Source: Limnochordia bacterium
GTDB lineage: Bacteria; Bacillota; Limnochordia; DTU087; JAAYGB01
Direction of reading: 5' to 3'
Length of the DNA stretch: 64,000 bases
NCBI GenBank assembly: GCA_041687495.1
Contig: JAWLBR010000001.1
Coordinates: 12,014 to 76,013, forward strand
This document shows positions 2,034 through 20,754 of the stretch, piece after piece. Made by a program: the position numbers and the translations under genes. The first letter of the stretch is position 1; each line of letters opens with the position of its first letter. The notes beneath the pieces are model-generated. The model was not told where the DNA came from. It made no database searches and saw only the letters and a list, made by a program, of their open reading frames with translations.

Positions 2034-2035
2034 GG

Positions 2036-2692: not shown

Positions 2693-2718
2693 CGCTACCC
2701 CTTCCTTCTCCAGATACG

Positions 2719-2964
2719 TTATTCAACGACTCCCATGATCAGAGTTTTAAACGGTGCCCGCTCCAGACCAAAGATCGACTTCGCCGCTCCCGGCGGCCCA
2801 CCAGCCAGGACTCTGTCTCCGGGCCCAGCTCCCACATAGTCGATGGCGATCTCGTACTCTGTCCCATGCCCTGCCATAGGCTGAATCAGAAAAAGCCGCT
2901 TTCCTTCTAAGGATTTATGCTTTACAGTACACACCACCGGGCTAATCACTTTAGCTAAGTACAT
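2719..2964 (-). CDS. BMC-P vertex (pentamer) protein, EutN/PduN/CcmL family
   Basis: 81 aa; MYLAKVISPVVCTVKH...LFLIQPM...IAIDYVGAGPGDRVL matches the Pfam03319 pattern. Confidence 0.75.
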   Translation of the reverse strand: MYLAKVISPVVCTVKHKSLEGKRLFLIQPMAGHGTEYEIAIDYVGAGPGDRVLAGGPPGAAKSIFGLERAPFKTLIMGVVE

Positions 2965-3292
2965 TGCTGGTTCCGTCCTCTCCGTTGTTCCCGGCTGTCG
3001 AGAGCAGGCTCAGCTGCTCAACGCTGACGCGATCAACGAGACCCACGATACTGGCATCTACTGGCGTATGATCCCCGGCAAAAGCCACCGCTGCCTCACC
3101 GCTGAACACAACCAGAACTACGTCGCCTTCTCCTGCCTGGGATGTGGCGTCAGCGGCAATATAAGGGCTTCCTCTCTCCTGCAGCTTGGCGTTCAGCGGC
3201 TGCACCGCCATAAATTTCATCCGCTCCAGGTCTGGGTCTCGCAATGAACAAACCACCCTGCCGATCACTCTTCCGAACCGCACGGGCGCCAC
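2951..3292 (-). CDS. BMC-P vertex protein paralog (EutN/CcmL family) with C-terminal tail
   Basis: RFGRVIGRVVCSLRDPDLERMKFMAVQPL...AADATSQAGEGDVVLV fits the EutN/CcmL fold signature. It has an extra ~25-aa C-terminal tail and short overlaps with both neighbouring BMC-P genes. Confidence 0.65.
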   Translation of the reverse strand: MAPVRFGRVIGRVVCSLRDPDLERMKFMAVQPLNAKLQERGSPYIAADATSQAGEGDVVLVVFSGEAAVAFAGDHTPVDASIVGLVDRVSVEQLSLLSTAGNNGEDGTSNVLS

Positions 3293-3615
3293 TTCCCTTC
3301 CTGCCGCCGCGAATAGACCTCAGTTGTGCCAAGATGTACAGCATCAATAATTCCAACGACGGCTGCATCTACCGGAGAGTGACTGAGTTTCGCAGCCTGG
3401 CGAGCCGAACTGCCACTGACCGTCATGACAATGTCGCCAACGCCCGCACCAACTGTATCCACCGCTACAATGCAACTACCCGCAGGCTCGCCAGAAGCGA
3501 TCTGAAGCGGCTGCACCACCTGTAACTTAAATCCGACCAGTTTGGGATCCTTCTGTGTAGCAACTACAGTGCCAACTACCCGTGCCATCTGCATTGTTTT
3601 TCCTGCCTTTCGCAA
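3265..3615 (-). CDS. BMC-P vertex protein paralog (EutN/CcmL family)
   Basis: MQMARVVGTVVATQKDPKLVGFKLQVVQPL...IVAVDTVGAGVGDIVM. The true start is probably the internal Met near 3594. Confidence 0.7.
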   Translation of the reverse strand: MRKAGKTMQMARVVGTVVATQKDPKLVGFKLQVVQPLQIASGEPAGSCIVAVDTVGAGVGDIVMTVSGSSARQAAKLSHSPVDAAVVGIIDAVHLGTTEVYSRRQEGKWRPCGSEE

Positions 3616-3646
3616 AAAGGTCAGCCACAGCCACCCGTCTCGCTAT

Positions 3647-4237
3647 CTATCCGGGGAATTGCGCCAGAAGCGCTGGATGTGGCGCCGGCAGCACCACAGC
3701 GGTCACCAAATCAGCTGGGGCAATCTGTGTCTCACCGCTTTCCACCCCAGCCGTTACTGCAGAAACGGTCCCCGCCATCACTACAAAGGACTTGCCTCCC
3801 ATTCCCCGGGTAAGCCGAACTTCCAAAAGCTCTACCTGTGCTGCTTTCACCGCGGCGTCAGCTCCAGTGATGGCTGCCGCTGCCCGCAGTGTTTCGATGA
3901 CGCCTACAGCGCTGCCAAGGCTGGTGGTGTGAGGCTCCAGCAGAGCATCGACAACCGCTTCAGCGATGTTGGCCAACACGCCCTGGGACAGTACATGCCC
4001 ACCACCGACAGCCACCGCCCGGTTCATAGCCGCCTGAACCGCTGCCACCCGGCCCGAAATGATGACAAAAAACCGACCGGGGCAAATTGGACTGGCCTGA
4101 ACCACCCTTACCTCAGCGGACTTGGCTGCAGCATCGACGCAGATATACCCCCACGGGACACTGTCACACTCCATCAAACCGACCGCGTTCCCGTGATTGC
4201 TCCGGCCTTTTCCATGAGGGCCCTCAGGATGCGGCAT
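3647..4237 (-). CDS. BMC-T shell protein, PduT-like tandem BMC-domain protein with Fe-S cysteine motif
   Basis: Two BMC domains (VGLMECDSV...; SLGSAVGVIETLRAAAAITGADAAVKAAQVEL) and an ICPGRFFVII motif analogous to the PduT Cys ligand. The N-terminal ~20 aa are uncertain. Confidence 0.7.
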   Translation of the reverse strand: MPHPEGPHGKGRSNHGNAVGLMECDSVPWGYICVDAAAKSAEVRVVQASPICPGRFFVIISGRVAAVQAAMNRAVAVGGGHVLSQGVLANIAEAVVDALLEPHTTSLGSAVGVIETLRAAAAITGADAAVKAAQVELLEVRLTRGMGGKSFVVMAGTVSAVTAGVESGETQIAPADLVTAVVLPAPHPALLAQFPG

Positions 4238-5453
4238 CGCTACCTAACCCCTTCACCACAAGATTGTAAGTATCCCGGGCGATGACAAGCTCTTCGTTGG
4301 TGGGGATGACCCACACTTCGGCCTTCGCCTCAGGGGGAGATATTCTTCTCTCTGGGTGGCCATCGGCGTTGCGGGCACTGTCCACCCATATGCCCATGAA
4401 TTCTAATCCGCTGAGAATCTTTTCTCTTACCTGCGGCGCCCGCTCTCCCACGCCACCGGAGACGACAACTGCATCCACGCCGCCCATGGCTGCTGCATAT
4501 GCCCCGACATACTTGCGGCACCGGTAAACAAAAGCGTCGATGGCCAGCTGGGCCCTGCCATTGCCAGCAGCGGCTTCTGCAAAAACCTCCCTTAAGTCGC
4601 TGCTCACACCCGATATCCCCTGCCATCCGCTGGTCTTGTTTAGCATCTGATCCATCTGGTCTGGACTCAGACCTTCCTTTCGCATTAGGTAGGTGATTAC
4701 CAGCGGGTCAATATCGCCGCACCGAGTAGATTGAATTAGTCCCTCGGTAGGAGTGAGGCCGGTACTGACGTCAACGGAACGGCCCCGGTCAAATGCACAG
4801 GCAGTCGTTCCGCTGCCCAGCATCAAGTTGACAATCTTCAAATCTTCCAGGGGCCTTTTCATCAGTTGAGCTACCCGTTCGGTCATATATCGGAAAGTGA
4901 TCCCGTGAAAACCGTACCGCCGAACTCGATACTTCTCGTAGAATTCATAGGGGATGGCATAAATATAAGCTTCCGGCGGAACTGTCTGATGGAGGCTAGA
5001 ATCAAAGACTGCCGCCATAGGCACATCCGGCATCAGCTCTTGACAGGCTCTAATTCCTTGCACATTGGGCGGGTTGTGCAGGGGAGCTAAATCGTAGTAG
5101 TCTTCTAAAACTTTCATTACCTGAGGCGTAATCGGCACCGAACCAATACAGCGTTCGCCTCCATGGACCACTCTGTGGCCTACAGCATCAATATCACTTT
5201 TTTCCTTCACCGCGCCGACTTTCGGGTCAAGGAGAGTAGAGAGGGCCACCTCAATAGCTTCTTGATGACTCAGCGCCGCAAAGGTTCGAGTCAGCGGAGG
5301 CTTGCCAACCGCTAGATGCGTTAGACGGGCATCGCTCCGTCCAACTCGTTCCACTTGCCCCTTCGCCAAGACTATTTCGCTTGGCATTTCCATGAGTTGG
5401 TACTTAACTGAAGATCCTCCGCAGTTTAGCACTAAGACTCTCACCCGAAACAC
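4224..5453 (-). CDS. ackA: Acetate/propionate kinase
   Basis: 409 aa; N-terminal VLVLNCGGSSVKYQL is the acetokinase signature. The full-length ASKHA acetate kinase family match sits inside the BMC operon, as in many metabolosome loci. Confidence 0.85.
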   Translation of the reverse strand: MFRVRVLVLNCGGSSVKYQLMEMPSEIVLAKGQVERVGRSDARLTHLAVGKPPLTRTFAALSHQEAIEVALSTLLDPKVGAVKEKSDIDAVGHRVVHGGERCIGSVPITPQVMKVLEDYYDLAPLHNPPNVQGIRACQELMPDVPMAAVFDSSLHQTVPPEAYIYAIPYEFYEKYRVRRYGFHGITFRYMTERVAQLMKRPLEDLKIVNLMLGSGTTACAFDRGRSVDVSTGLTPTEGLIQSTRCGDIDPLVITYLMRKEGLSPDQMDQMLNKTSGWQGISGVSSDLREVFAEAAAGNGRAQLAIDAFVYRCRKYVGAYAAAMGGVDAVVVSGGVGERAPQVREKILSGLEFMGIWVDSARNADGHPERRISPPEAKAEVWVIPTNEELVIARDTYNLVVKGLGSDAAS

Positions 5454-6055
5454 CCCTCCGTAGTCGTACAGGCAGAACTATGGCCGCCAAACACAAACAC
5501 TCCATCCCAAGCCTGAGGACTGGGGTTGGCCAATATCCTGCTGTCGACAAGCAGCTCTCCGCTTAACGTTTTCAGCACAGCGTCCACTGCAGCTGTTACC
5601 GCGCCTATGGTTCCGCCAAGATACAGGCATCCCCGGCCAGAGATGCCGCCGGCCAAACGAATTGTGTACAACTCCACCTGGGCTGCCTTGACTGCCGTAT
5701 CAGCTGCCAGCACCGCCGAACTGGCACTATAGGTCTCAAGGATCCCCAGCGCCTGTAGCTGGCCCACCGGGGTAGTCCCCTTTACTGCACTGATAAGGTT
5801 GGGATGGGGATTCCCCAGGCAAAAGCTGTCAATGTGATTCCACTCCGGCCGAGCTGCAGCATACTCCAAACCCGCCCGAACCGCGGCAACCTCCCCGGAC
5901 ACCGCAGCTAACAGCTTCCCAGGGCAGACCACCCGAACCAACACTAGCTCGACAGGATAGGCCTTGATTAACCAGTCCACTGCCTTGAGCCCCAATCCGA
6001 TGCTCTTAAACTCCATCATTGCCAAGGCGCTACTGTCCAGCATATTGCTCACCAT
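5441..6055 (-). CDS. BMC-T shell protein, PduT-like tandem BMC-domain protein with Fe-S cysteine motif
   Basis: Two BMC domains (MMEFKSIGLGLKAVDWL...; ALGILETYSASSAVLAADTAVKAAQVEL) and a VVCPGKLLAAV motif. It lies directly downstream of the second PduS-like gene. Confidence 0.75.
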   Translation of the reverse strand: MVSNMLDSSALAMMEFKSIGLGLKAVDWLIKAYPVELVLVRVVCPGKLLAAVSGEVAAVRAGLEYAAARPEWNHIDSFCLGNPHPNLISAVKGTTPVGQLQALGILETYSASSAVLAADTAVKAAQVELYTIRLAGGISGRGCLYLGGTIGAVTAAVDAVLKTLSGELLVDSRILANPSPQAWDGVFVFGGHSSACTTTEGCFG

Positions 6056-7385
6056 CGCTCATAATAGTTACCTCACCATGCTCAATCTTGCTGACCGTCC
6101 CAGAAATACTGCTGTGAACGCTTACACTGAGCGAAGAGCCAGAGCCGACTGCGATCTCCTGTCCTTGGGACACCTGGTCGCCGACATTTACGCTCAGCTT
6201 TCCAGGGGCGCCGACGTGCTGCAACACAGGAATCGTCACACTTCCAGGAGCAACGGACTCTTCCCAGGGATGCGCCTTCTTCTCCCACTGGAACAACCCT
6301 AACCGGAGCACCAATCTCTGCGACGGCAGCAGATTCCCCTGACCATCCCACTCACTGTTCTCTTCGAGACAAAACTCTGATTTTGGGGCAGAGACCTCCC
6401 GCAGACGTCGTTTCAGCCATCGGTTAATTTGTCTGGGGGAAAGTCCCATGGGACAGACCACATCGCAGACTCCGCACTCGCTGCACAGTACTGCGGCTTT
6501 CGCACTCTCGAGTTCCAGAGTTCCTTCGGTAGATGCACTGCGCATGGCCAGATGCGGCACCAACGGATGGCCGAGTAAGTGCCTCGGGCATAGGTCCGTG
6601 CACAGAGTGCAGGAACAACACACCTGGTTGGCGAGTCGGACCATGTGCTCAACCGATAGGTGTGCTCGACCGTGCAGATGGTCCACGGGATGATTGGTAG
6701 GAACGACAATGAGACCCTTCGTTGTCTTAGTCACCGGCTGGTCCAAGTCTGCCACAAGCCTTCCCATCATCGGTCCGCCCTCGATTATCTGGTAACTGGC
6801 AGGCGACGGCTGTGCTAAGGCAACAACCTGTGACACTGACATGCCAATCGGGGTTTTAATGGTAAGGGCCCGCTTCACCGCTCCAGTTACGGTAACCCAG
6901 GAATGGGTTACCGGAAAGCCCGCAGCCGCTTCAGCAATGTTGTACAATGTCTCTACGTTAAGAACTACAGCCCCGATCCGAAGAGGGATATCTCCCGGCG
7001 GGATCGTTCGGCCCAAAACATGCCGACACAGAACATGTTCGTCCCCCATGGGGTAGACATCGGGAAGAAGCGCTATCTCCAACCAGGGATACGAAACAGA
7101 CAAATCCGCAAACATCTCCACTTGGTCTACATGCTTAGCCTTGACAGCTAAGTAGGCTCTCTTGGCCTTAACCGCTCTCGAAACCAGTTCTAGCCCTTGT
7201 AAGATAGTCTCCGGGTAGTGAGCCAACAGAACTTGGTCTACCTGGAGAAGGGGTTCACATTCAGCTGCATTGACAATGACTGTCTCAATCCCTTCACCTA
7301 GCTTGCGATAGGTAGGAAACCCAGCACCACCTGCTCCGACAACTCCTCCACGGCGGACAGCCTGAATCAACTGCTTGAGCTGCAT
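6030..7385 (-). CDS. PduS-like RnfC/NuoF-family Fe-S flavoprotein, second paralog
   Basis: VVGAGGAGFPTYRKL plus two 4Fe-4S motifs (CCSCTLCTDLCP; CSECGVCDVVCP). There is a C-terminal RnfC_N-like barrel (VTIPVLQHVGAPGKLSVNVGD). ~451 aa. Confidence 0.75.
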   Translation of the reverse strand: MQLKQLIQAVRRGGVVGAGGAGFPTYRKLGEGIETVIVNAAECEPLLQVDQVLLAHYPETILQGLELVSRAVKAKRAYLAVKAKHVDQVEMFADLSVSYPWLEIALLPDVYPMGDEHVLCRHVLGRTIPPGDIPLRIGAVVLNVETLYNIAEAAAGFPVTHSWVTVTGAVKRALTIKTPIGMSVSQVVALAQPSPASYQIIEGGPMMGRLVADLDQPVTKTTKGLIVVPTNHPVDHLHGRAHLSVEHMVRLANQVCCSCTLCTDLCPRHLLGHPLVPHLAMRSASTEGTLELESAKAAVLCSECGVCDVVCPMGLSPRQINRWLKRRLREVSAPKSEFCLEENSEWDGQGNLLPSQRLVLRLGLFQWEKKAHPWEESVAPGSVTIPVLQHVGAPGKLSVNVGDQVSQGQEIAVGSGSSLSVSVHSSISGTVSKIEHGEVTIMSDGEQYAGQ

Positions 7386-7428
7386 CTGGAACCTCCTTCC
7401 CAGACCAAGTCCAGTGCTGCGGCATCAT

Positions 7429-8868
7429 CTAGATTGACAGTGCCCCTTGCACAGTTACGTTTCTCTGCCGGGTGAAAGTCCGTGGCGTACAGATCCCTTC
7501 GCCAGTAGGACTTGCAATGGTATGTCCGAAGGTGCCGTTGCCCTCCACACCCAGGGACGCCGTTGCCGGACCATTGGCCACCACAATGGTTGTGTTCATC
7601 TTGCGGGCAAAGGCACTGATGCGCTCTTCCATGGACGAGTGGATGATGGCCGTATGACCAAACCCCTGCTCTGCTTCATAAGCCCGCTCCAGTCCCTCAG
7701 ACCAATTAGCTACTGACACAATCGGTAATACTGGCAGCATCTGCTCGATTTTCACCAATGGATGGTCAAAGGGCACCTGTAAAATAGCTCCCTCGGTACC
7801 AGGTGGGGCAGCGATTCCCGCCCGCCGAAGAATATCCGCCCCATCTTGGCCGACGCAGTCGCCTACCACATGGTTATCCTTGATAATGAGGTTACAGACC
7901 TGCCTCTTCTCCTCATCACTCTTCAGTAGATACGCATGATGCCGCTGCATTTCTTCAATTAGAGCCTCCGCCACAGAGCTCACTACAAATACAACCTTCT
8001 CCGAAATGCAGAGAATGTTGTTGTCAAACCATGAGCTACTGATGATGTCCCTGGCTGCCCGATGAATGTCAGCCGTCTCGTCGACAACCACAGGTGGATT
8101 AGCAGCTCCAGCCGCAACCGCCTTTTTCCCGCAGCTGAGCGCCGTACGAACAACTGCCGGACCTCCTGCGGCGGTAACCATCGCAACCAGGGGATGAGTG
8201 ATCACCTGGTTTACTACATCCAAAGTAGCCTGGTTAACGGCTACCAGACAGTTCTTCGGCCCACCGGCGGCGATAATGGCCCTGTTGAGAGTACGGATGG
8301 CTTCACGGGTGCATTCCTGAGCCCGAGGATGTGGGCAGAAAAACACAGTATTGCCCCCAGCCAGCATGATGATGGCGTGGTTGATAACAAAAGGAGTGGG
8401 ATGAGTAGTGGGTGTAATCGATGCGATTAGGCCGTAAGGACCCCGCTGCGTCAATGTGATACCATAATCACCTGCTTGAACAGCTCGAGGAAGGTCCTCA
8501 GTACCTGGAGAGAGTTTCGCTGCGTTAATGTTCTTCTGTACCTTGTGTTCATATCTGCCTAACCTAGTCTCCTCGATGGTCAGCTGGGCAAATCGTTGCG
8601 CATGCTCAATTCCCGCTTTGCGCACAGCGGAAATGACGGCCTCTCGCTGTGCCAAAGACATCTGCATTAACTCTTGTTGAGCTGCCTTGGCGGCTTCAGC
8701 CGCTGCGCCAACGGAGGTAAAGATCCCTGCTTCCTCGCTTGCACCGGGAGATTCTGTAGGTATTTTTGCTTCCGTGGTGAGGTTTCTCAAGACCTGGCTG
8801 ACTAACTCCGAAATCCTTTTCTCGTCTATCTGCATAGCAGGTACCTGCTGGGCTGCACACATCACCAA
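7429..8868 (-). CDS. CoA-acylating aldehyde dehydrogenase (PduP/EutE-like) with N-terminal encapsulation peptide
   Basis: ALDH-superfamily acylating subfamily hallmarks (GIFTSVGAAAEAAKAAQ..., catalytic Cys region ILCISEKVV, ...GEGICTPRTFTRQRN C-terminus). The N-terminal IDEKRISELVSQVLRNL amphipathic helix plus linker precedes the catalytic domain, as in PduP. The likely start is the Met at ~8835. Confidence 0.85.
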   Translation of the reverse strand: MVMCAAQQVPAMQIDEKRISELVSQVLRNLTTEAKIPTESPGASEEAGIFTSVGAAAEAAKAAQQELMQMSLAQREAVISAVRKAGIEHAQRFAQLTIEETRLGRYEHKVQKNINAAKLSPGTEDLPRAVQAGDYGITLTQRGPYGLIASITPTTHPTPFVINHAIIMLAGGNTVFFCPHPRAQECTREAIRTLNRAIIAAGGPKNCLVAVNQATLDVVNQVITHPLVAMVTAAGGPAVVRTALSCGKKAVAAGAANPPVVVDETADIHRAARDIISSSWFDNNILCISEKVVFVVSSVAEALIEEMQRHHAYLLKSDEEKRQVCNLIIKDNHVVGDCVGQDGADILRRAGIAAPPGTEGAILQVPFDHPLVKIEQMLPVLPIVSVANWSEGLERAYEAEQGFGHTAIIHSSMEERISAFARKMNTTIVVANGPATASLGVEGNGTFGHTIASPTGEGICTPRTFTRQRNVTVQGALSI

Positions 8869-8995
8869 GCCCGAATGTTATGCCTGGCTAGAGCCTGAAC
8901 CATGGCGTCAGCCCAGCAGTTTCAGGCCCCCTTTGCTGCGAACTAAGTAAGATGCGACCGAGACTATCTCAGCTGGAAGAAGCTGAAATAGCGAT

Positions 8996-9280
8996 TCACT
9001 CGCCACGGGGAACCAGGATTTTCTCCACGTCACTATGGGGCCGAGGGATAACATGGGCCGCTACCAGTTCAGCCACCCTGCCGGCAGCCTCGGCGCCAGC
9101 ATCCACAGCCGCCCTGATCGCTCCGACATCTCCTCGGACCATAACGGTGACCAAGCCCGACCCGATCTTCTCATAGCCCACCAGCTGAACATTGGCAGCC
9201 TTGACCATCACATCAGCAGCCTCAATGGCTCCGATTAAGCCCTTTGTCTCGATTAATCCCAACGCTTCGCCCATTTCCAC
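8996..9280 (-). CDS. BMC-H shell protein (PduA/PduJ-like hexamer)
   Basis: 94 aa; [58 protein letters not shown] is the canonical Pfam00936 sequence. Confidence 0.9.
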
Positions 9281-9361
9281 TACATCCTCTCTTCTGATAA
9301 TTTGGTGTAAAAAAATACTTGCTACTTGCCCGTAGACTTCGCCTAAGACTGGCGCTGCCCT

Positions 9362-9649
9362 TTATATCTCAAGGTTTTTGGCAAACAAGTTCGCCACTTG
9401 CCTGTCTGCCCGTGCGATAATCTTGGTGACGCAAGGCCGACCCATTCTGCCGGCACAATCTTCGGCAGCCTCCACCGCCGCCGTCACTGCCCCGACTTCT
9501 CCCGCTAACTTGATCACAAACTTACCGCTGCCTTTGGATGGTTCGAGACCCAATAGTTCAACTGCAGCAGTCTTAGCGGCGCTGTCGGCGCACGCATAGG
9601 CTGCAGCTAAGCCGGCCACTTCCAGCAGCCCTAGAGCTCTTCCTGCCAT
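9362..9649 (-). CDS. BMC-H shell protein, divergent paralog
   Basis: 95 aa; ALGLLEVAGLAAAYACADSAAKTAAVELLGLEPSKGSGKFVIKLAGEVGAVTAAVEAA has the BMC fold signature. It has non-canonical Cys residues and an SGKF motif. Confidence 0.8.
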   Translation of the reverse strand: MAGRALGLLEVAGLAAAYACADSAAKTAAVELLGLEPSKGSGKFVIKLAGEVGAVTAAVEAAEDCAGRMGRPCVTKIIARADRQVANLFAKNLEI

Positions 9650-9747
9650 CGCCTTTCACCCCTTTCACACCTAGCTATCAGCGTCAGAGCGGAAGCGAAA
9701 ATTAGCAGTTCCAATTCACTCCCGCCGCTGCGCTGCGTCCGGATGGG

Positions 9748-10554
9748 TTACTTGCCCGTTTGCTCGGACAGAACTTTCATGGTAACTTCAGTGATGATTC
9801 GCACCAGGTCACTTTCACTAACTCCCGAATCAGCCGGAACGCCAGGATGCTGTTCTGCCTGACTCTCCTCCACGTAGACACTCCCACCCTGGCAGGTAGC
9901 CGGATGCCGACCAACTACTCCCAACTTCCGCCGCACTTCCATCAACTTCTCCACATCAGGCGAACTGATAGCTTTCTCGTTGCCCAGCTGCCTAGCCAGA
10001 AGGCTGATCTGAGCGCCTAGGTCCAGAGTCTCCATCTTAAAATAGGCGTTGTACACATCAGTGCCAACCGTCAGTGCCCCGTGATTCTCCAGTAAGAACG
10101 CATCGTGGCACTGGAGATACTTGCTGACCGCTTGGGGGATCTCATCGGTTGATGGAGTTCCATACTCTGCCACCGGCACCCATCCAAGACTGATTACTAC
10201 CTCAGGCATGATTGGCTTCGTCAAAGGTATTCCCGCCACAGCAAAGGCAGTGGCATGGGGCGGATGGGCGTGGACCACCGACTTGACGTCATCGCGCTCT
10301 CGATACACCTGCAGGTGCATCTTCAGCTCTGATGAGGGTTTGAGCTTGCCGGACTTAACCGTCCCATCCATATCCACTTTGATAATCATGTCCGGAGTGA
10401 GAAAACCCTTGCTGACTCCAGTGGGAGTCGTTAATACTTCATCTGGACCCGTCCGAATAGTGATATTGCCGTCATTGGCAGCAACAAACCCCTTATTATA
10501 TATCCGTCGCCCCACCTCAATGATGTCTCTTTTTAGCTCGAATTCAGACGCCAT
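9748..10554 (-). CDS. Class II aldolase/adducin-family enzyme (fuculose/rhamnulose-1-P-aldolase-like) with C-terminal extension; BMC signature enzyme
   Basis: PF00596-like core with metal-binding His (VVHAHPPHA, ENHGALTVG). It is ~50 aa longer than stand-alone FucA/RhaD and ends in the amphipathic helix SDLVRIITEVTMKVLSEQ after a Gly/Pro/Ser-rich linker. It is the first large gene of the operon. Confidence 0.85.
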   Translation of the reverse strand: MASEFELKRDIIEVGRRIYNKGFVAANDGNITIRTGPDEVLTTPTGVSKGFLTPDMIIKVDMDGTVKSGKLKPSSELKMHLQVYRERDDVKSVVHAHPPHATAFAVAGIPLTKPIMPEVVISLGWVPVAEYGTPSTDEIPQAVSKYLQCHDAFLLENHGALTVGTDVYNAYFKMETLDLGAQISLLARQLGNEKAISSPDVEKLMEVRRKLGVVGRHPATCQGGSVYVEESQAEQHPGVPADSGVSESDLVRIITEVTMKVLSEQTGK

Positions 10555-10586
10555 GAACTAGCCCCTTTCTGTATATGCGGTAATCT

Positions 10587-10790
10587 TTATACTGTGATGG
10601 CCTTCCATTCACCCTGTCGAAAACGCCATTCGATCACCATAGCGCTGACCCATTGGTCTGCTGCACAGGCGATCCATGCTCCAATCAAGTCCCAAGAAAA
10701 AACAACGCCAAATAAGAAGGCGAAAAGCACCCGAAATCCCCAGATGCCAACATTTGTGACAACTCCAGTCCTCCATCCTTGCCTGTGCAA
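10587..10790 (-). CDS. Hypothetical small hydrophobic protein (possible spurious ORF in the BMC operon leader)
   Basis: 67-aa ORF with a hydrophobic stretch (VLFAFLFGVVFSWDLIGAWIACAA) that ends 33 nt before the aldolase start. No recognisable family. Confidence 0.2.
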   Translation of the reverse strand: MHRQGWRTGVVTNVGIWGFRVLFAFLFGVVFSWDLIGAWIACAADQWVSAMVIEWRFRQGEWKAITV

Positions 10791-10877
10791 GTTCTATCTT
10801 GCCATTACTTGATTCACCCACGGCAAGCTAACCCCTGCAAAGTATCCATTGGTATAAGTCATTTCAGCATCGGAGTC

Positions 10878-10923
10878 AAAGCAAAACTGCCAGCGGGCGC
10901 TCTGATCGGAGCGATGCTGGCAG
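10878..10923 (-). terminator. Putative rho-independent terminator downstream of the ferredoxin-like gene
   Basis: On the minus strand, CTGCCAGC...(inner CGCTC/GAGCG pairing)...GCTGGCAG is followed by TTTTGCTTTG. It separates the ferredoxin-like gene from the BMC operon promoter region. Confidence 0.45.
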
Positions 10924-11041
10924 TCTGATTAGACAATATTCTCGGCAAGCAGTCATGCTGCCTGCCGACGTGCATTTGGGGATTCAAGCTGATGCCCGAG
11001 GTGTTAGCTGGGGGGACAAAACATTACTCCAGTAATCGACC

Positions 11042-11830
11042 CTAAAAACCGGCGGCCCGCTTGCGCTCTTCTTTGATGCTGCCATCGATACCGATGGTAA
11101 ACTCATGAACAGGCAGCGTCTGGCCGGACAACTCCAGCGCCTGTTTCGCGATATATACCAATCCGGAGCAGCACGGAACCTCCATGTGCACGATGGTAAG
11201 TCGGCGCAGGTTGTTCCTCGCAATGATGTCAGCCAGCTTAGCAACGTACTCGCTGGCATCGTCCAGTTTGGGGCAACCTACTGCCACTGCCCGCCCACTG
11301 AGGAACTGCCGATGAAAATCACCGTAAGCAAAGGGAACGCAGTCGGCACACAGAAGGAGATCCGCCCCCTGGAAGTACGGGGCATTGGGAGACAGCAATG
11401 ACAGCTCCACTGGCCACTGTCTTAGTGCCGATGTCAGCTCTAGTGGCTCGGTGCTCTCCGTGGGATGGTGGTTTGCACTTGACTCCTTCTCAGTCTTTGG
11501 CGTTGCGGCAAAATGCATCATCCGGGCCCCGGGGCATCCGCTGTGCCCATGGTCACCGTGGGTTGACCCCTGTGGCTGTTGCGAAGACTGCCGACGAACA
11601 TGAGCCAATGCCGCTTCCTCGTCAAATTCAGGAGCTTCTCGCTTTTCAATAGTCAGGGCTCCCTGTGGGCAGTGGCCTAAACAGGCGCCAAGACCATCAC
11701 AAAAGTCATCCCTCATTACCCTAGCTTTGCCGTCAATAATCTGCAGTGCGCCTTCGGCGCAGGCAGGAACACACAGCCCACAGCCATTGCACTTCTCCTC
11801 ATCAATTACGATCATATCTCTCATTGGCAT
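11042..11830 (-). CDS. 4Fe-4S dicluster ferredoxin-domain protein with His-rich linker and Cys-rich C-terminal domain
   Basis: N-terminal CNGCGLCVPACAEGAL and CDGLGACLGHCPQGAL are two classical CxxCxxCxxxCP motifs. A His-rich low-complexity linker follows. The C-terminal domain carries CADCVPFAYGDFH and VPCCSG motifs and has no family I can name. Confidence 0.6.
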   Translation of the reverse strand: MPMRDMIVIDEEKCNGCGLCVPACAEGALQIIDGKARVMRDDFCDGLGACLGHCPQGALTIEKREAPEFDEEAALAHVRRQSSQQPQGSTHGDHGHSGCPGARMMHFAATPKTEKESSANHHPTESTEPLELTSALRQWPVELSLLSPNAPYFQGADLLLCADCVPFAYGDFHRQFLSGRAVAVGCPKLDDASEYVAKLADIIARNNLRRLTIVHMEVPCCSGLVYIAKQALELSGQTLPVHEFTIGIDGSIKEERKRAAGF

Positions 11831-11996
11831 AGTCTCTTACCTCCAAAGTCTATAGTGAGCCATCGGACCACCGCCGGGTCCTTTGACCTCAGCTTTTTAG
11901 TAACTGACTATATTGTAGCGCATCGGCGAACCCATGCCCTTGACATAAGTCAAAAGGTCGCGAAAAAAGCCCGGCAAACGGTGCCGAGCTTCTCCG

Positions 11997-13868
11997 TCAT
12001 TGATCTACCGGGTCTTCCTGCTCGTCCTGACCCGCCTCTTGAGGTGGAGAGAAATATGCCTCAAGGAATTTGCGAGCCATAGGTGCAGCCGCTGAGGCTC
12101 CTCCCCCACCGTGCTCAACAAAAGCTACGACCACAACTTCTGGCTTGTCTACCGGGGCATATCCCGCAAACCAGCCATGGCCGTCTGCTCCAGTGACCTG
12201 TGCCGTTCCGGTCTTACCGGCAACAGGAGTATCAAACCCACGGAACACGTTGTGGGCTGTACCTCGCCGATTCTTCACTACAGCCACTAAGCCCTTCTCG
12301 ATGGCTGACCAGTGCGCTGCCGCCATGCTGATTTTTCGAGCCACGATGGGTTCTAACTCGTTAACGATACCCCCCGTGGGGTCCATCACTGCTCTGACCA
12401 AGCGGGGAGCATACTGAGTGCCTTTGGTAGCTAGCGTGCTGTACATCTGTGCTACCTGCAGCGGAGTGACCAGAAGATAGCCTTGACCGATGGAAAAATC
12501 CATTGTTTCCGCTTCGTACCAATTCCTTTCCCAGATGGGTTTCTTAGCAAAGACCTCCTTCTTCCAGTCCGGATCAGGAACTAGTCCTGCCTTATCACCG
12601 GGATACAGATCGATGCCGGTGGACGACCCAAAACCAAACATCCTGGAATACTTGGCAATGGACTCCACCCCGAGGCGGAAACTCATTTCCCAAAAAAAGT
12701 CGTTGCTGGAACGCTCCAATGCCGTCGCCAGATCGATCCAACCATGAGGAGGAAGTGGCGGATACTGATTCAAAATCCAATCCTTCTTGCCATACTTACT
12801 CTTACCCGTCGCATAGTACAACTCGTCAGGATTGAGTTTCCCTAAATCAAGTGCAGCAACAGCGGTGACCGGTTTAAATGCCGAACCTGGAGGGTACATC
12901 CCTTGAGTAGCCCGGTTCAACATCGGTAGAGATGGGTCCCGCTGCAGTTGCGCAAAGTTACGCTCAGGAACATTGGGGAGCAACAGATTTGGATCAAACC
13001 CCGGGCGACTGGCTATTGCCAGTATCTCCCCAGTCCACGGGTCCATAGCAACAATAACTCCCGCCTTAGCATCGGGTCCGTTTGCTTTGCCTTGGAGTTC
13101 GGCTAACTGCGCATCGATAGTCTCTTCAGCGACCCGCTGCAGCCTGCTGTCAATGGATAGAATAATGTTGTTTCCAGGAACGGGGTCCTGCGATTCAATT
13201 ACCCTTTGCGGTCTGCCCACGGCATCCACTTCCCGCAGGATCCACCCGTTTTCACCCTTCAGATCTCGCTCATACGCTCGCTCCAGGCCGCTCTTACCAA
13301 TCAAGTCGGTCCCATAGTACCCACTGAGTGTGCTGAGTTCGTCGCTGTTGATCATGCCAAGATAGCCTACCAAGTGGCTGGCGGTCTGGCCTTGTGGATA
13401 TGTTCTGCTGACCACACTCTCCAAATTGACCCCAGGCAGATCCTGCTGCTTCTCCGCAAGGCGGATTATCGCCTCGGGGCTTAGGTTGAGCACCACGGGC
13501 ACCGGTTCAAAGGACCGATATTCCTTGGACTGAAGCCGCTGGACAATCTCGTCAGCGTTCGCTCCGGTAATAGTTGCCAATGTACTGGCGACCTCGGTAA
13601 TCGGCTGGTCTAAGTGGTCCTTGATCACGGTCACCTGGTAGACGGCCTTATTGGTTGCCAGCTTCGTCCCGTTGCGATCCAAGATGTCACCCCGCGCGGG
13701 ACTGACCCTTTCCATTCGGCTTTTGTTGCCTTCGGCAAGGGCCGAATACCTGTCCCCCTGGATAATCTGCAGCTGCCACAATCGGGCCAAGAGGACGAAG
13801 AGGATCAACCATATCATCCAACCAAAGACCTTGGTTCGCTGGACCAAAGCTTTATCCTCTGTACTCAT
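11997..13868 (-). CDS. mrdA: Penicillin-binding protein 2 (class B PBP, elongation-type transpeptidase)
   Basis: N-terminal membrane anchor plus RLWQLQIIQGDRY dimerisation-domain start. Transpeptidase SxxK motif (GSAFKPVTAV), SxN and KTG(T) motifs (KTGTAQ). 623 aa. Confidence 0.85.
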   Translation of the reverse strand: MSTEDKALVQRTKVFGWMIWLILFVLLARLWQLQIIQGDRYSALAEGNKSRMERVSPARGDILDRNGTKLATNKAVYQVTVIKDHLDQPITEVASTLATITGANADEIVQRLQSKEYRSFEPVPVVLNLSPEAIIRLAEKQQDLPGVNLESVVSRTYPQGQTASHLVGYLGMINSDELSTLSGYYGTDLIGKSGLERAYERDLKGENGWILREVDAVGRPQRVIESQDPVPGNNIILSIDSRLQRVAEETIDAQLAELQGKANGPDAKAGVIVAMDPWTGEILAIASRPGFDPNLLLPNVPERNFAQLQRDPSLPMLNRATQGMYPPGSAFKPVTAVAALDLGKLNPDELYYATGKSKYGKKDWILNQYPPLPPHGWIDLATALERSSNDFFWEMSFRLGVESIAKYSRMFGFGSSTGIDLYPGDKAGLVPDPDWKKEVFAKKPIWERNWYEAETMDFSIGQGYLLVTPLQVAQMYSTLATKGTQYAPRLVRAVMDPTGGIVNELEPIVARKISMAAAHWSAIEKGLVAVVKNRRGTAHNVFRGFDTPVAGKTGTAQVTGADGHGWFAGYAPVDKPEVVVVAFVEHGGGGASAAAPMARKFLEAYFSPPQEAGQDEQEDPVDQ

Positions 13869-13888
13869 GTCGACCCCTCTCCCGGTAT

Positions 13889-14173
13889 CTACTTCATATA
13901 TTTGCGCAGGACATCCATCAGTTCATCGATGGCTTCATCACCGCGCTCTTCGCGGATAGCGCTGGCAACACAGCCTCTAGTATGCGACTCAAGGAGAATC
14001 TGCCCAACACTGTTGAGGGCAGAGCGAACCGCAGATATTTGATGGAGAATATCCACACAATACTTGTCTTCGTCAACCATCCGGGTTATCCCCCGTACTT
14101 GGCCTTCAATTCTGTTCAGCCGTTGAATCAGATTCTTCTTGCATTTACTGTCATAGGAATGCAATGCGCCCAA
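13889..14173 (-). CDS. csoR: CsoR/RcnR-family metal-sensing transcriptional repressor
   Basis: 94 aa; NLIQRLNRIEGQVRGI is a DUF156 signature, and the C...H...C pattern (DKYCVDILHQ...HTRGC) is typical of Cu(I)-sensing CsoR. Confidence 0.75.
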   Translation of the reverse strand: MGALHSYDSKCKKNLIQRLNRIEGQVRGITRMVDEDKYCVDILHQISAVRSALNSVGQILLESHTRGCVASAIREERGDEAIDELMDVLRKYMK

Positions 14174-14389
14174 CCCCTTCCATTATACCCCCACATAGTA
14201 TACCTAGATTGTATCGTAATCACCCCTACTAGACAAGAGATGACCTATGTCTGTCTCTAGCAAAGATTGACTGGAGAGTATTCAAGCTTCCGCCCTTCAG
14301 CACATGCCCCTTGCTCGAGCTATACCTGCATGCCCAAAAAAAAGATGGCGCCTTCGCGCCATCTTGTCGCAATGCTCTAATTGGCTTAC

Positions 14390-14881
14390 TCAATTCTCCC
14401 CTGTGCCCATCCGTGCACTTAGCCGCCACAACAGCCACGCCAGCGCTGTGGCTCCACCCCCGATAATCCAGTCGGTGGATAGGACTTGCCGGGTAAGTAA
14501 AATCATCCCGAGGTGAAACAAGGGAAACAAGAGTAACTCCCAAGCCGTAACCCGCAGGAATCTCCTTAATAGTGCTGATATACCCTTAGTCTGAAGGTAA
14601 GATTCCGATACCCAGACAACGAACCCTATCCAAGCTGCGGCTAGAAACAACATCGTGGGACCGCCTACATACGCTCTGACAAATGCGGCAGCCGACGCGT
14701 GGGTTGGTCGCAAGGAAAGCTGCCCCAATATGACCAATACGCTCCAAAGCCATACCAAACTTAGTCCGCCGTTCCCAATGGTAAATAGTACTGCCAATGC
14801 GCCCTTGTTCGCCCTACTTAGGCCCTGCCTTCTTTCTTGTTCAGCCATGCCATCTCCCCCAGACTCATTGCCGCTCATCAA
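14390..14881 (-). CDS. Hypothetical 4-TM membrane protein
   Basis: 163 aa with four predicted hydrophobic helices and no recognisable family. It lies downstream of csoR on the same strand. Confidence 0.4.
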   Translation of the reverse strand: MMSGNESGGDGMAEQERRQGLSRANKGALAVLFTIGNGGLSLVWLWSVLVILGQLSLRPTHASAAAFVRAYVGGPTMLFLAAAWIGFVVWVSESYLQTKGISALLRRFLRVTAWELLLFPLFHLGMILLTRQVLSTDWIIGGGATALAWLLWRLSARMGTGEN

Positions 14882-15096
14882 GCTTTGACCCAGCTACGTA
14901 GCGGCCTTCTGTGACTTCAGCGGCTGACATGTCGCTCATCACAAAAGGTTTCTCCGCATTTGCAGGTGTTCCTTTTTTTGCCTACGTGGCATTATATGCA
15001 AACCGAGCTGAGGTCTTGCCTCACCTGTCCACAGCTTCAACGCCGGCCAGAGAATCTGACGCCAGCAAAGCCAATGGGGAAAAAGGGTAGTTTGAA

Positions 15097-15582
15097 CTAC
15101 CTCATCCTAGTCAGTTCAACCGCTTCTTTACCTGTTATGTGCTCCGGTGTGATTTCGACAACACACAGTGCGTTCCACGCCTGCTTGATCTCGTCAGCAC
15201 CTTCTCTTTCGAAACCAGGAGAGTACTTACGAACTAACTGTTGCATCGCATGGTGTTTGTCCCCGTCGTCTACTAGGATCCGAGCTCGTCCAAAGACTAT
15301 AACGCTGCGAAAGTATGTGGTAAACTCTTTTGGAATAATCTCGTCTTGATCAATTACGCAGAAAGACACCTTGTCGTTTCTTTGGATTGCATCAAGCTTA
15401 TGACCACTTTTGGCACAGTGGAAATATATCTTCCCATCGTGGTAAACATAGCTCAAAGGGACTGTATATGGGTAGTTGTCGTCGCCGCTGACGCCTAAGA
15501 CTCCGTGGCGCCCCTTTTCTAGTATTTCCGTCACTGCTTCGTCCGGTATAAGCTGCTTACTTCGTCTCACTTCTCTAAACAA
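15097..15582 (-). CDS. Pyridoxamine 5'-phosphate oxidase-family (FMN-binding split-barrel) protein
   Basis: 161 aa; similar to NimA/PNPOx-like proteins (GVLGVSGDDNYPYTVPLSYVY...IYFHCAKSGHK). Confidence 0.7.
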   Translation of the reverse strand: MFREVRRSKQLIPDEAVTEILEKGRHGVLGVSGDDNYPYTVPLSYVYHDGKIYFHCAKSGHKLDAIQRNDKVSFCVIDQDEIIPKEFTTYFRSVIVFGRARILVDDGDKHHAMQQLVRKYSPGFEREGADEIKQAWNALCVVEITPEHITGKEAVELTRMR

Positions 15583-15609
15583 CCTGATCCCTCCGTGTGT
15601 ATGCAGACA

Positions 15610-16677
15610 CTAGCCACCCAAGGGCTTTGCCACTAGAGGTGCGGCAGTCGTCCCTCGCACGACTAACTGGGAGCCAATTACCGTCGGTTCAGGGCAATAA
15701 CCAGGCTCCCGCAGCATACTTACTAACTTCCCAATGGCGGTTTGACCCATGTCGGTCCCGAATTGCCGTACTGTGGTCAATCCCGGGCGCACATGCTGGC
15801 TGGCAGCAATATCGTCAAACCCAACAATAGATATGTCTTTGGGAATCTCAAGACCTCGGCTCGCTGCGCACTCCATGGCCCCATATGCCATTAGGTCGCT
15901 GGCGGCAAACACAGCCGTCGGAGGCTGACCTAGGTCAAGCAGGCGAGCCATGGCACCGAATCCGCCTTCCTTGTTGAAGAGTCCCTCCTGATGCAGTGAG
16001 GTATCGTAGGGGATATTTGCTTCCTGTAGCGCGGACAAGTAGCCGTTGAGGCGCTCCACACACAAAAAGCTATCCACAAAGCCATCAATATATGCAATTC
16101 GTCTGTGACCCAACTGAACAAGGTGGGTCACTGCCTGATAGGCTCCACCGGCGTTGTCCGAAGTCACATAAGTAATCCCTTCGCCTAGTCTTTCCATATC
16201 GACAAACACGGCGGGAACTTTGGCTTCCTGGACACTCTGTACGACCGGAGACCTATCAGCAAAGCCCATGACAATGAGGCCCTCCAACTGCATCTCCCGC
16301 CAGGTGAACCGCTCTGGCCCCGCCCCCCCGGAACCATCGTCCAACCACATAGTCAGTCCATATCCGCTTCCCCGTACACCCAACACCAAACCAGCGATAA
16401 CATCGTGGAAGAATGGATGAGTCAAAACCGCTCTTTCCAAAGTAACCAGGCCAATCAGATGACTGCGCTGTGTAACCAGACCTCTGGCAATCAGGTTGGG
16501 ACGGTACCCCGTCTCGCGCACAGCTTTCCAAACCTTCTCTTCTGTGGACTGGGCCACGTTGTTATACCCGTTGAGGACATGGGATACCGTAGCAATCGAA
16601 ACTTCTGCCCTTTGAGCTACATCCTTGAGAGTAACCACCACACCACCCCCAGATAGCTTTTGTAATTGCTGCATCAA
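15610..16677 (-). CDS. LacI-family transcriptional regulator
   Basis: N-terminal HTH (VTLKDVAQRAEVSIATVSHVLNG) plus a periplasmic-binding-protein-like sugar-binding domain. 355 aa. Confidence 0.85.
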   Translation of the reverse strand: MMQQLQKLSGGGVVVTLKDVAQRAEVSIATVSHVLNGYNNVAQSTEEKVWKAVRETGYRPNLIARGLVTQRSHLIGLVTLERAVLTHPFFHDVIAGLVLGVRGSGYGLTMWLDDGSGGAGPERFTWREMQLEGLIVMGFADRSPVVQSVQEAKVPAVFVDMERLGEGITYVTSDNAGGAYQAVTHLVQLGHRRIAYIDGFVDSFLCVERLNGYLSALQEANIPYDTSLHQEGLFNKEGGFGAMARLLDLGQPPTAVFAASDLMAYGAMECAASRGLEIPKDISIVGFDDIAASQHVRPGLTTVRQFGTDMGQTAIGKLVSMLREPGYCPEPTVIGSQLVVRGTTAAPLVAKPLGG

Positions 16678-16754
16678 TTGGTACGAAAACCAATTGACCG
16701 CCCTCGTTTACCTCGGGCGGTCATGATGAACCTACTACGCTGTATCTACACCCT

Positions 16755-17555
16755 CTACCGGCCCAGCACTTCGACTAACAGGTCAGTTCGGTTAGTGATA
16801 ATACCATCTATCCCCATTGCAGCTAGCTGTTCCATTTTCTGGGGCTCATCCACGGTCCACGGGTTAACAAAGACCCCCTGGGCCTTGGCCCCTGCCACCC
16901 CAGACTCGTTGACACTGTGGTAAGCCGGATGCAGGCCTTTCACATCCATTGCCGCTGCATAAGCCCAAGGTTCATACAAACCCGCACTATACAGGATGGC
17001 AGTCGATAGCTTCGGTTCGATCTTCATCGTCTCAATCAAGCTGTAGTGGTTAAACGAGGAGATAATCACCCGGTCCACTAGCTTGTACCGCCGAATTAAC
17101 TCCACAACCTTTTCTACCAAACCAGGATAGCTGACAATACCTGTCTTCAGCTCTATATTCACCATGACAGAAGTGTCCACCACAAGGTCGAGCACCTCAG
17201 AGAGCAGCGGAATGCGTTGTCCACTGAAGCTGTCTGAGTACCAACTGCCCGCGTCCAGCCGCCGTAGTTCCTCTAGTGTCAGATCCTTAATAAACCCCTT
17301 ACCATTCGTAGTCCGATTGACCTTCTCATCGTGACAGACAACCATCTCGTTATCCTTACTGAGATGGACGTCCAGCTCAATGCCTTCAGCCCCGAGTTCA
17401 AGGGATTTGGCAAAACTAGCTATGGTGTTTTCTGGTGCAAGGTACGGTATTCCCCTATGCCCAATGACTTTCGGCCACGTCTGCATCAACGCATCCCCAC
17501 CTGATTCAAAATGCTTGCTAATAAGATGATTGCAAGGAATATATTCACACCCCAA
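16755..17555 (-). CDS. Glycerophosphodiester phosphodiesterase (GDPD family)
   Basis: VIGHRGIPYLAPENTIASFAKSLELGAEGIELDVHLSKDNEMVVCHD is the GDPD catalytic signature. The probable true start is the internal Met near 17486. Confidence 0.8.
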   Translation of the reverse strand: MGCEYIPCNHLISKHFESGGDALMQTWPKVIGHRGIPYLAPENTIASFAKSLELGAEGIELDVHLSKDNEMVVCHDEKVNRTTNGKGFIKDLTLEELRRLDAGSWYSDSFSGQRIPLLSEVLDLVVDTSVMVNIELKTGIVSYPGLVEKVVELIRRYKLVDRVIISSFNHYSLIETMKIEPKLSTAILYSAGLYEPWAYAAAMDVKGLHPAYHSVNESGVAGAKAQGVFVNPWTVDEPQKMEQLAAMGIDGIITNRTDLLVEVLGR

Positions 17556-17579
17556 CAGCTGATTCCTGCTGGAAACAGT

Positions 17580-18332
17580 CTAAATTGGTTTCTCCGGCCG
17601 AGATCCCGGCTTCACGACAGGAATTCCCTGCTGGCATAGAGGACAGTCGTTCGGTGGGTAAACCTCAATTTCTACGCTGACCAGACTCCAAAATGGCAGG
17701 CGAAAATCCACAGCACCCCCAGTTCGATCCACAACCGCCGCCACTCCCACCGGTTCAGCCCCTTGGGCTCGACATAGCTGGAGTACTTCCCGCACTGAGC
17801 CGCCTGTCGTCACTACATCTTCAGCCACTAGTACACGCTGCCCCGGTTGCAGCGCAAATCCGCGGCGCAATGTCATCTGACCGTCCTGCCGTTCCGCAAA
17901 GATGTTGCTCACCAGTAGCTGCCGACTTAGTTCATAGCCAAACAGAATCCCTCCCAGTGCAGGAGAAATTACGGTATCGATGGCTTCTGATTCAATCCGC
18001 TCAGCCAGTAAGCGGCAGACATGTTCGGAGAAAGCAGCATCAGTAAAGATCTTGGCACACTGCATGTACTGTTGGCTGTGCAGCCCTGATGTCAGCCGAA
18101 AGTGCCCCTGCTGCAGTACTCCAGCCTCTGTAAACGCCTGCAAAACCTGCCTTTTCCCCATCATCCTTGTCTCCTCTCTAAGCCTACGTTGATCTCGGCC
18201 ACCACTTGCTGAAACGCTACTGCAGGATCCGGATGGGCGGTAATGGGCCGCCCGACAACGAGGTAATCGCACCCGTTGGACGCCGCCCAGTGCGGTTCGG
18301 CAGTACGAGCTTGGTCTCCGGTTGCAGCCCAT
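17580..18332 (-). CDS. pyrE: Orotate phosphoribosyltransferase
   Basis: Type I PRTase PRPP-binding motif (VLVAEDVVTTGGSV). The ORF-track start is over-extended. The likely start is MMGKRQV at ~18164, abutting the pyrF stop. Confidence 0.85.
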   Translation of the reverse strand: MGCNRRPSSYCRTALGGVQRVRLPRCRAAHYRPSGSCSSVSASGGRDQRRLREETRMMGKRQVLQAFTEAGVLQQGHFRLTSGLHSQQYMQCAKIFTDAAFSEHVCRLLAERIESEAIDTVISPALGGILFGYELSRQLLVSNIFAERQDGQMTLRRGFALQPGQRVLVAEDVVTTGGSVREVLQLCRAQGAEPVGVAAVVDRTGGAVDFRLPFWSLVSVEIEVYPPNDCPLCQQGIPVVKPGSRPEKPI

Positions 18333-18907
18333 GCAGGCCTTATTCCCGGCGTCACAGTGGTGAACCCGCCGCCCAGTTGGTGCTTGATAGTGGCCGCTTC
18401 TCTTGGCGATGCTACTACTCCATCCAAGCCCGCCTTGTGCGCCAGGGCCGCCAGCCGAACTACCGCCTGTTCCGGATCTTGCGGTATTCCTATCTCACTG
18501 CGCAAAGTGCCGGCGTCGATACTAGTCAGTACAGTCACGGCGATGAGCTTGGCAGTCTCACCGCAACATCCCGCCGATAACAACCCTTCCCGAGCCGCCT
18601 GCATCATCTGCACACCCCCACTGCAGTGTACGTTGACCATGTCGACCCCCAAGCGGGCCAGGGCCGCCATTGCTCGATACGCAGTGTTGGGAATATCCAT
18701 CACCTTCAAATCCAAAAACACTCTCAACCCTCTGTTTTTCAAGAGCTCTAGCAGCTTGGGTCCCGCCGCGTAGTACAGCTCCATTCCTACTTTGACCCAC
18801 CTAAGGTCAGGACCGATCTGATCTATCAAGGATAGAGCCCGTTCGACTCCGGGCACGTCTAGAGCCACAATCACTCTCTCGTTGGCTGACATTAAACCGC
18901 CTCCCAT
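18161..18907 (-). CDS. pyrF: Orotidine 5'-phosphate decarboxylase
   Basis: VIVALDVP...[10 protein letters not shown]... are OMPdecase motifs. It sits between pyrD and pyrE. Confidence 0.85.
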
Positions 18908-20732: not shown

Positions 20733-20754
20733 TGGTCGCCCCCCTTTTTTGGCT

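Follow-up and report, generated by a model that had tools for sequence, protein, structure and literature searches.

The class II (FucA-like) aldolase encoded at 9748..10554 on the minus strand of the window, by which we mean the whole stretch of 64,000 nucleotides that was analysed, carries about 50 residues at its C-terminus that we interpret as an encapsulation extension, consisting of a flexible tether of 28 residues followed by an amphipathic helix of about 20 residues. We assign this interpretation a probability of roughly 0.86. The aldolase is the first gene of a minus-strand operon of a bacterial microcompartment (BMC) that also encodes two BMC-H, three BMC-T and three BMC-P shell proteins, an acylating aldehyde dehydrogenase (AldDh), a PduL-type phosphotransacylase, an acetate kinase and two PduS-like proteins. 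A preceding sequence-only reading of the same DNA had proposed that the extension targets the aldolase as cargo to the compartment. Its observation is confirmed here, and its interpretation is supported at the sequence level by the operon itself, by the conserved register of the helix among homologues, by the association of the tail with shell genes and by a match of the helix profile to PduL.

Structure and conservation of the C-terminal extension

The aldolase and its parts are the following (pLDDT, predicted local distance difference test, is the per-residue confidence of the structure model):

9748..10554, minus strand: class II (FucA-like) aldolase gene, signature enzyme of the locus (PF00596; 268 amino acids plus stop)
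9901..10554, minus strand: catalytic core, residues 1-218, with the conserved G-R-H-P at its end (pLDDT >94 to about residue 220; short homologues end 0-13 residues past HP)
9817..9900, minus strand: linker, residues 219-246, ATCQGGSVYVEESQAEQHPGVPADSGVS (pLDDT 44-68, with residues 231-242 below 50)
9757..9816, minus strand: C-terminal amphipathic helix E247-T266, putative encapsulation peptide (AlphaFold2 pLDDT 80-88; encloses 9760..9813)

In a Pfam scan, PF00596 (residues 10-184, E=4.6e-50) was the sole domain detected on the aldolase, and beyond about residue 211 the protein is covered by neither an NCBIfam nor a Pfam model. The reading frame continues unbroken as far as a TAA stop codon. 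Its start has good support in that the N-terminus, MASEFELKRDI, agrees with that of the homologues. The nearest solved structures among the PDB matches are FucA-type chains of 212-217 amino acids. Since residues 5-206 of the aldolase align to residues 7-208 of a 217-amino-acid FucA-type chain, the core ends near residue 218 and the protein exceeds FucA in length by about 50 residues. The sequence-only reading had given this excess for both FucA and RhaD; it holds for FucA but not for RhaD, which in E. coli has about 274 amino acids (the NCBIfam RhaD model has 274 positions) and belongs to a distant subfamily. Relative to its nearest non-compartment homologues (221-231 amino acids) the aldolase is 37-47 residues longer. 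Within the core, E76, H95, H97 and H158 are invariant across 53 homologues; we equate these residues with the zinc ligands of FucA and presume that they are the expected metal-binding and catalytic residues.

The segment at 9751..9909, to which the sequence-only reading had assigned the extension, corresponds to aldolase residues 216-268, RHPATCQGGSVYVEESQAEQHPGVPADSGVSESDLVRIITEVTMKVLSEQTGK, and 9760..9813, given there as the helix, translates exactly to SDLVRIITEVTMKVLSEQ and lies within the helix 247-266. An AlphaFold2 model of the aldolase, for which a 53-sequence alignment was used, places the core at a pLDDT >94, drops below 50 in the segment 231-242 with surrounding blocks averaging 44-68, and recovers in a terminal helix at residues 247-266 with a pLDDT of 80-88. 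The same combination of a disordered linker and a confident terminal helix was obtained for a 61%-identical homologue. The linker had been described as rich in Gly, Pro and Ser, which is correct for 10 of its 28 residues but leaves out that it also contains 4 acidic residues and 3 Gln. It holds a single Cys, C221 (about 9892..9894); most relatives have 3-5. On a helical wheel, L250, V251, I253, I254, V257, V261 and L262 share one half of the helix while the other face is polar, and the hydrophobic moment is 0.42 at 100 degrees. Helical wheel and structure prediction, both suggested as checks in the sequence-only reading, hence gave one aliphatic face and a confidently predicted helix, and the disordered or non-amphipathic extension that it had named as contrary evidence was not found. 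Scans of the tail region for Rfam families, repeats and promoters or terminators revealed nothing beyond chance.

The family-level analysis of the helix was based on 172 distinct long-tailed aldolase homologues. The anchoring pattern fixed helix positions 0, +4 and +5 in advance but left -7, -4, -3 and +8 free. Across the 172 tails, 60-100% of residues at positions -7, -4, -3, 0, +4, +5 and +8 belong to ILVMF, the positions between them are polar, and at -4, -3, 0, +4 and +5 aliphatic residues reach 99-100%. When each tail was compared with its own shuffles, the mean z of amphipathicity was 1.6, with 97% of the tails above zero. The linker varies in sequence and is 14-52 residues long, and in the lineage of the window it shows no conservation. 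The helix of the window aldolase fits the family register at all positions but +8, and the overall identity between this aldolase and its tail-bearing homologues is 54-82%.

A profile was built from the aldolase helices of the homologues, with the window protein left out, and was searched against 597 six-frame open reading frames (ORFs) of the window. The aldolase tail ranked first (E=2.4e-5) and the N-terminus of PduL ranked second (E=0.026), while the N-terminus of AldDh was not significant in this search. Among representatives of clusters at 50% identity, 81 of the 134 with a complete core have tails of at least 25 residues, many of which end in similar helices. Eight distant cluster representatives (P0246, P0257, P0263, P0284, P0289, P0296, P0348 and P0382) have a different class of C-terminal motif (…[IV]TLTRxEL.xLIExAV…), possibly a targeting helix for a different type of compartment.

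Tail length and shell genes among homologues

The homologues fall into two length classes, one of about 250-310 residues with the terminal helix and one of 221-231 residues that ends 0-13 residues past G-x-H-P; the tails of the latter comprise 23 distinct sequences, 0-13 residues long. The relation of the tail to shell genes was surveyed at 80 loci from species-representative genomes and at three short-tailed rhamnose loci. Absence of shell genes was scored only where at least 5 kb of DNA was available on both sides, and 11 further long-tailed genes lay on flanks that were too short for scoring. Tail and shell genes proved to be strictly linked: shell genes were found near 62 of the 64 well-flanked long-tailed aldolases and near none of the seven well-flanked short-tailed ones (Fisher's exact test on 62, 2, 0 and 7, p = 2.7e-8). 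A tail on homologues outside of microcompartments, which the sequence-only reading had regarded as evidence against targeting, is therefore not the pattern observed. Most well-flanked short-tailed aldolases adjoin genes of rhamnose catabolism. Specifically, three short-tailed homologues with 65-74% core identity adjoin rhamnose isomerase and rhamnulokinase, and in two of the three also DeoR, with no shell gene within 10 kb.

Moorella mulderi (L011) offers a case in which tail and shell genes are both reduced. In the region 10560..10960 of that locus, the aldolase stops at GRHPGCTGYGG, inside the Cys motif described below, and immediately downstream only the first 24 residues of a BMC-H protein survive, fused to a PduS-like fragment. 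Two Neomoorella species retain both the aldolase tail and the shell genes. The Moorella mulderi locus resembles a compartment locus in decay, the targeting tail having been lost simultaneously.

By the definition of encapsulation peptides of Kinney 2012 and Aussignargues 2015, such peptides are terminal on a signature or core cargo enzyme, form an amphipathic helix, are attached by a poorly conserved linker and are absent from non-compartment homologues. The last 22 residues of the aldolase occupy the terminus of such an enzyme, and the helix is amphipathic by its AlphaFold2 model (247-266), its moment of 0.42 and its register in the 172 tails. The linker is poorly conserved, with the caveat of a conserved Cys motif at its start in most relatives, and the extension is absent from non-compartment homologues, with L005, L020 and L049 as exceptions.

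The microcompartment operon and the proposed packaging

The remaining genes and peptides of the operon are listed in their order downstream of the aldolase:

9362..9649 and 8996..9280, minus strand: BMC-H shell genes, single-domain hexamer, directly downstream of the aldolase (PF00936, E=2.3e-18 and 2.9e-30)
7429..8835 from ATG, minus strand: acylating aldehyde dehydrogenase, AldDh (PF00171; starting at residue 52 of a longer ORF)
8779..8826, minus strand: encapsulation-peptide-like N-terminal helix of AldDh, DEKRISELVSQVLRNL, followed by a linker of about 25 residues (motif conserved in homologues)
6030..7385, minus strand: PduS-like flavo-iron-sulfur protein (Pfam match)
5441..6055, minus strand: BMC-T (Pfam match)
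4224..5453, minus strand: acetate kinase (Pfam match)
3647..4237, minus strand: BMC-T (Pfam match)
3265..3615 and 2951..3292, minus strand: BMC-P, EutN/CcmL-type (Pfam matches)
2719..2964, minus strand: BMC-P, 81 amino acids (assigned from its sequence and from the gene in this position of the syntenic contig L087, which has 81 amino acids and matches PF03319)
2036..2692, minus strand: PduL-type phosphotransacylase (PF06130 from residue 31)
2636..2683, minus strand: encapsulation-peptide-like N-terminal helix of PduL, RALVERITKEVMGVLQ, with a short linker (second-best match of the aldolase-helix profile, E=0.026)
651..2033, minus strand: second PduS-like protein (Pfam match)
128..700, minus strand: BMC-T (Pfam match)

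The left edge of the window lies 127 bases past the last shell gene of the locus, and contig L087 shows the same gene order and ends its operon at the same BMC-T. The locus of an 81%-identical aldolase (L086) and three further loci (L093-L095) share the operon start with the window and keep the tail. AldDh scored above the cut-off of NCBIfam PRK15398 and PduL above that of PRK15070. All three BMC-T genes are tandem-domain genes, one of which scores PduT-like, and both PduS/RnfC-like paralogues carry an RnfC barrel-sandwich domain at the C-terminus. The locus contains no alcohol dehydrogenase. Between a ferredoxin-like gene and the aldolase there is an ORF of 67 residues (10587..10790, minus strand) that by eye resembles the C-terminal end of a MatE transporter. 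The corresponding position at locus L005 is occupied by a MatE gene of full length, so the ORF may be what a deletion left behind upstream of the operon.

Two further cargo enzymes of the operon possess helices resembling that of the aldolase. The N-terminal helix of AldDh, MQIDEKRISELVSQVLRNL, has the same hydrophobic pattern as the aldolase helix; its motif, M-x-[IV]-D-E-x-R-I-A-x-I-V-x-x-V-[LV], is kept in homologues and is followed there by a linker of variable sequence. The N-terminal helix of PduL, MDQRALVERITKEVMGVLQQQ, is located about 10 residues before the Pfam domain and is by eye identical to the aldolase helix at 8 of 17 positions.

We propose that the aliphatic face of the aldolase helix (L250, I253, I254, V257, V261 and L262) would dock in hydrophobic grooves between tessellating shell hexamers, for which the two BMC-H proteins are likely docking partners, and/or would bundle with the similar helices on AldDh and PduL. 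The aldolase would thus be co-packaged inside the microcompartment, with the linker giving reach. FucA-type aldolases are tetramers, so that each enzyme would present four helices and, being multivalent, could nucleate the cargo core. Within the shell, the aldolase would cleave rhamnulose- or fuculose-1-phosphate to dihydroxyacetone phosphate and lactaldehyde, and the latter would be processed by the co-packaged AldDh and PduL such that the aldehyde is not released. The substrate is suggested by the rhamnose context of the short homologues.

A variant of this proposal, which does not exclude it, is that the helix serves mainly as a cargo-cargo aggregation tag that bundles with the AldDh and PduL helices while other components touch the shell. 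We consider this possible but not probable. The presence of similar helices on three cargo enzymes of the operon and the match of the aldolase-helix profile to the PduL N-terminus would fit such a tag, as do published accounts in which encapsulation peptides not only bind the shell but also promote the aggregation of core proteins (PMC4594438; PMC11585597), and PduE has such a peptide yet is not packaged alone. The sequence data do not separate aggregation from shell binding. The PduL peptide has been reported to bind tessellated PduA (PMC11157265).

It is very unlikely that the tail serves the enzyme itself, for instance in oligomer stabilisation or autoregulation, and is unrelated to the microcompartment. 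Class II aldolases are oligomeric and C-terminal segments are functionally important in FucA, the AlphaFold2 helix is confident, and a small number of long-tailed genes have no shell genes in their vicinity, all of which would fit an intrinsic role of the tail. Yet homologues with 65-74% identical cores serve rhamnose operons without a tail, the helix is joined through a non-conserved linker of low confidence, the presence of the tail tracks shell genes (p = 2.7e-8), and in Moorella mulderi it was lost along with the shell locus. Still more improbable is that the helix tethers the aldolase to the cytoplasmic membrane in the manner of the amphipathic, membrane-targeting helices of the MinD/FtsA type. 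Such signals share the general architecture of a C-terminal amphipathic helix behind a flexible linker, but the polar face of the aldolase helix is acidic to neutral and not basic (D249, E256 and E264 versus R252 and K260), aromatic anchors are missing, the motif matches the N-terminal peptide of PduL, and its occurrence tracks shell genes. Least probable of all is that the extension is an artefact or vestige, either read-through into non-coding DNA or a functionless, decaying remnant, as the atypical Gln at +8 and the lack of the Cys motif common in relatives might indicate, given that the frame is open to the TAA, start and N-terminus match those of homologues, protein-level conservation of the helix extends over homologues of 54-82% overall identity, the operon is intact throughout and no RNA family or repeat overlaps the tail region. 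The linker, the active homologues without a tail and the shell-gene association disfavour these three explanations.

Several observations count against the encapsulation extension or against parts of the proposed pathway. The hydrophobic moment of 0.42 was matched by 7.4% of shuffles, so the single aldolase sequence is only modestly unusual; as the shuffle test is weak on a single sequence, we relied on the family-level pattern. At +8 the window aldolase has Gln where 81% of its relatives have Leu or Met. The aldolase scored below every NCBIfam equivalog cut-off (best scores ≤131 bits against cut-offs of at least 137). With no cut-off reached and no pathway genes in the window, it does not classify as an L-fuculose- or L-rhamnulose-1-phosphate aldolase. 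The 64-kb window yielded no isomerase or kinase gene for rhamnose or fucose and no DeoR gene. Homologues of rhamnose isomerase, rhamnulokinase, RhaM and DeoR, which are present in many related loci, were absent from 1..64000 at E below 1e-8; the genes feeding the compartment must lie elsewhere. The targeting function of the peptide is suggested by analogy with PduP, PduD, PduL and EutC, and in the literature examined we came across no experiment that addressed the encapsulation peptide of an aldolase. Finally, no shell gene was detected in the flanking DNA examined of the long-tailed aldolases at L005, L020 and L049. Among these, the L005 aldolase (10001..10810 of that locus) is 74% identical to that of the window and has an intact helix, and its two flanks of 10 kb each contain no shell gene.

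The L005 contig derives from an assembly with 1.9x coverage, and its aldolase may be a satellite gene or the result of a deletion or misassembly. Upstream of this aldolase, PBP, ferredoxin-like and MatE genes are arranged as in the window; a phosphoglucomutase follows it in place of BMC-H. A search with AldDh homologues for a shell locus from the L005 sample returned none, the further syntenic loci being from other samples only, and a comparison of the gene content of L005, L020 and L049 with that of loci whose shell genes are 8.7 kb away revealed no common architecture.

Linker cysteines and comparison with known systems

In a 2015 review the linker of the aldolases was described as unconserved (PMC4594438). 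We found at least three Cys in the linker of 136 of the 172 distinct long-tailed aldolases (about 80%), arranged directly after G-[RK]-H-P as either CxxCGxC or Cx(7-12)CHxC. For the CxxCGxC form, in an alignment of 30 sequences (columns of residues 219-226 of P0023; the tails are those of loci L008-L085), C220 is invariant and C223, G224 and C226 are conserved at ≥90%. The AlphaFold2 monomer model of a homologue with the Cys motif has a pLDDT <50 over residues 224-240. The window aldolase and its nearest relatives retain just the first Cys of the motif. These sequence patterns would be compatible with a linker that is not a passive tether but carries a conserved metal- or redox-sensitive site, which was lost in the lineage of the window while the helix was kept. 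There might then be two functional classes of the extension, and the Cys motif might couple packaging or activity to the PduS-like iron-sulfur/flavin proteins encoded in the same loci. We regard this idea as speculative and rather doubtful.

With regard to the locus type, criteria after Axen 2014 and Sutter 2021 were applied. Characteristic of PVM-like loci, the operon combines a class II aldolase (PF00596) with AldDh (PF00171) and PduL (PF06130) as well as a shell set of BMC-H, BMC-T and BMC-P, and neither a glycyl radical enzyme, as in GRM5, nor a hydroxyacid dehydrogenase, as in ACI, was detected among the large ORFs from 128 to 10554, which were all scanned and matched other Pfam families (the small ORF 2719..2964 lay outside the scan). 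Three BMC-P and an acetate kinase are shared with PVM loci, and PduS-like genes with PVM-like and GRM5 loci. The combination that marks true PVM loci, namely a host from the Planctomycetes or Verrucomicrobia, the PVM gene order, DeoR and a lactate/malate-type dehydrogenase, is not present. Three observations place the locus with the PVM-like and not the true PVM type: the closest relatives with a name belong to Limnochordia, Bacillota and Moorella, the window yielded no DeoR homologue, and PduS-like genes are present.

The aldolase is identified by its tail as packaged cargo and thereby as the signature enzyme of the compartment, and this supports a pathway from a deoxy-sugar phosphate via lactaldehyde to acyl-coenzyme A within the shell. 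The tail also provides a further natural targeting tag for engineering. C-terminal encapsulation peptides of the aldolase family have been catalogued since 2014-2015, and the current understanding of them is unchanged by our results. What goes beyond the published 23 sequences is the association of tail and shell genes in about 80 species, the co-deletion in Moorella mulderi and the overlooked Cys motif of most linkers.

Stand-alone FucA-type aldolases (E. coli FucA with 215 amino acids; 4c24 of S. pneumoniae with 217) have the fold as well as the metal and catalytic residues in common with the window aldolase; unlike it, they and the short homologues of clostridial rhamnose operons have neither linker nor helix. 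The peptides of PduP, PduD, PduL and EutC resemble the aldolase helix in being short, amphipathic and linker-joined, with aliphatic residues in a spacing of 3-4, but they are N-terminal and located on other enzymes, whereas the aldolase peptide is C-terminal. Peptides of this type are backed by targeting of green fluorescent protein, a nuclear magnetic resonance structure and PduA binding (PMC4594438; PMC11157265), and encapsulation peptides have been described to dock in the groove between shell tiles (PMC11157265).

The closest counterparts are the published peptides of other BMC aldolases. Aussignargues et al. (2015, PMC4594438) reported a C-terminal peptide of about 17 residues on 21 of 23 BMC-associated class II aldolases from PVM, PVM-like and GRM5 compartments, with linkers of 23-81 residues, and its absence from 12 controls. 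A C-terminal aldolase peptide was also noted for ACI loci by Sutter et al. (PMC8217296) and for SPU5 (PMC11585597). The parallel with PVM aldolases drawn in the sequence-only reading agrees with these accounts (PMC4594438, PMC8217296). Like the published cases, the window aldolase belongs to PF00596, has its amphipathic helix of about 17-20 residues at the same terminus behind a linker within or near 23-81 residues, lacks the extension in its non-BMC homologues and shares its locus with AldDh, PduL and shell genes. It differs from the published set, whose planctomycetal PVM members were compared by description, in its short (28 residues) and Cys-poor linker and in a host that is Bacillota-like and not planctomycete. 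The window aldolase is an ordinary further case of the published kind of peptide, from an uncultured Bacillota-like lineage.

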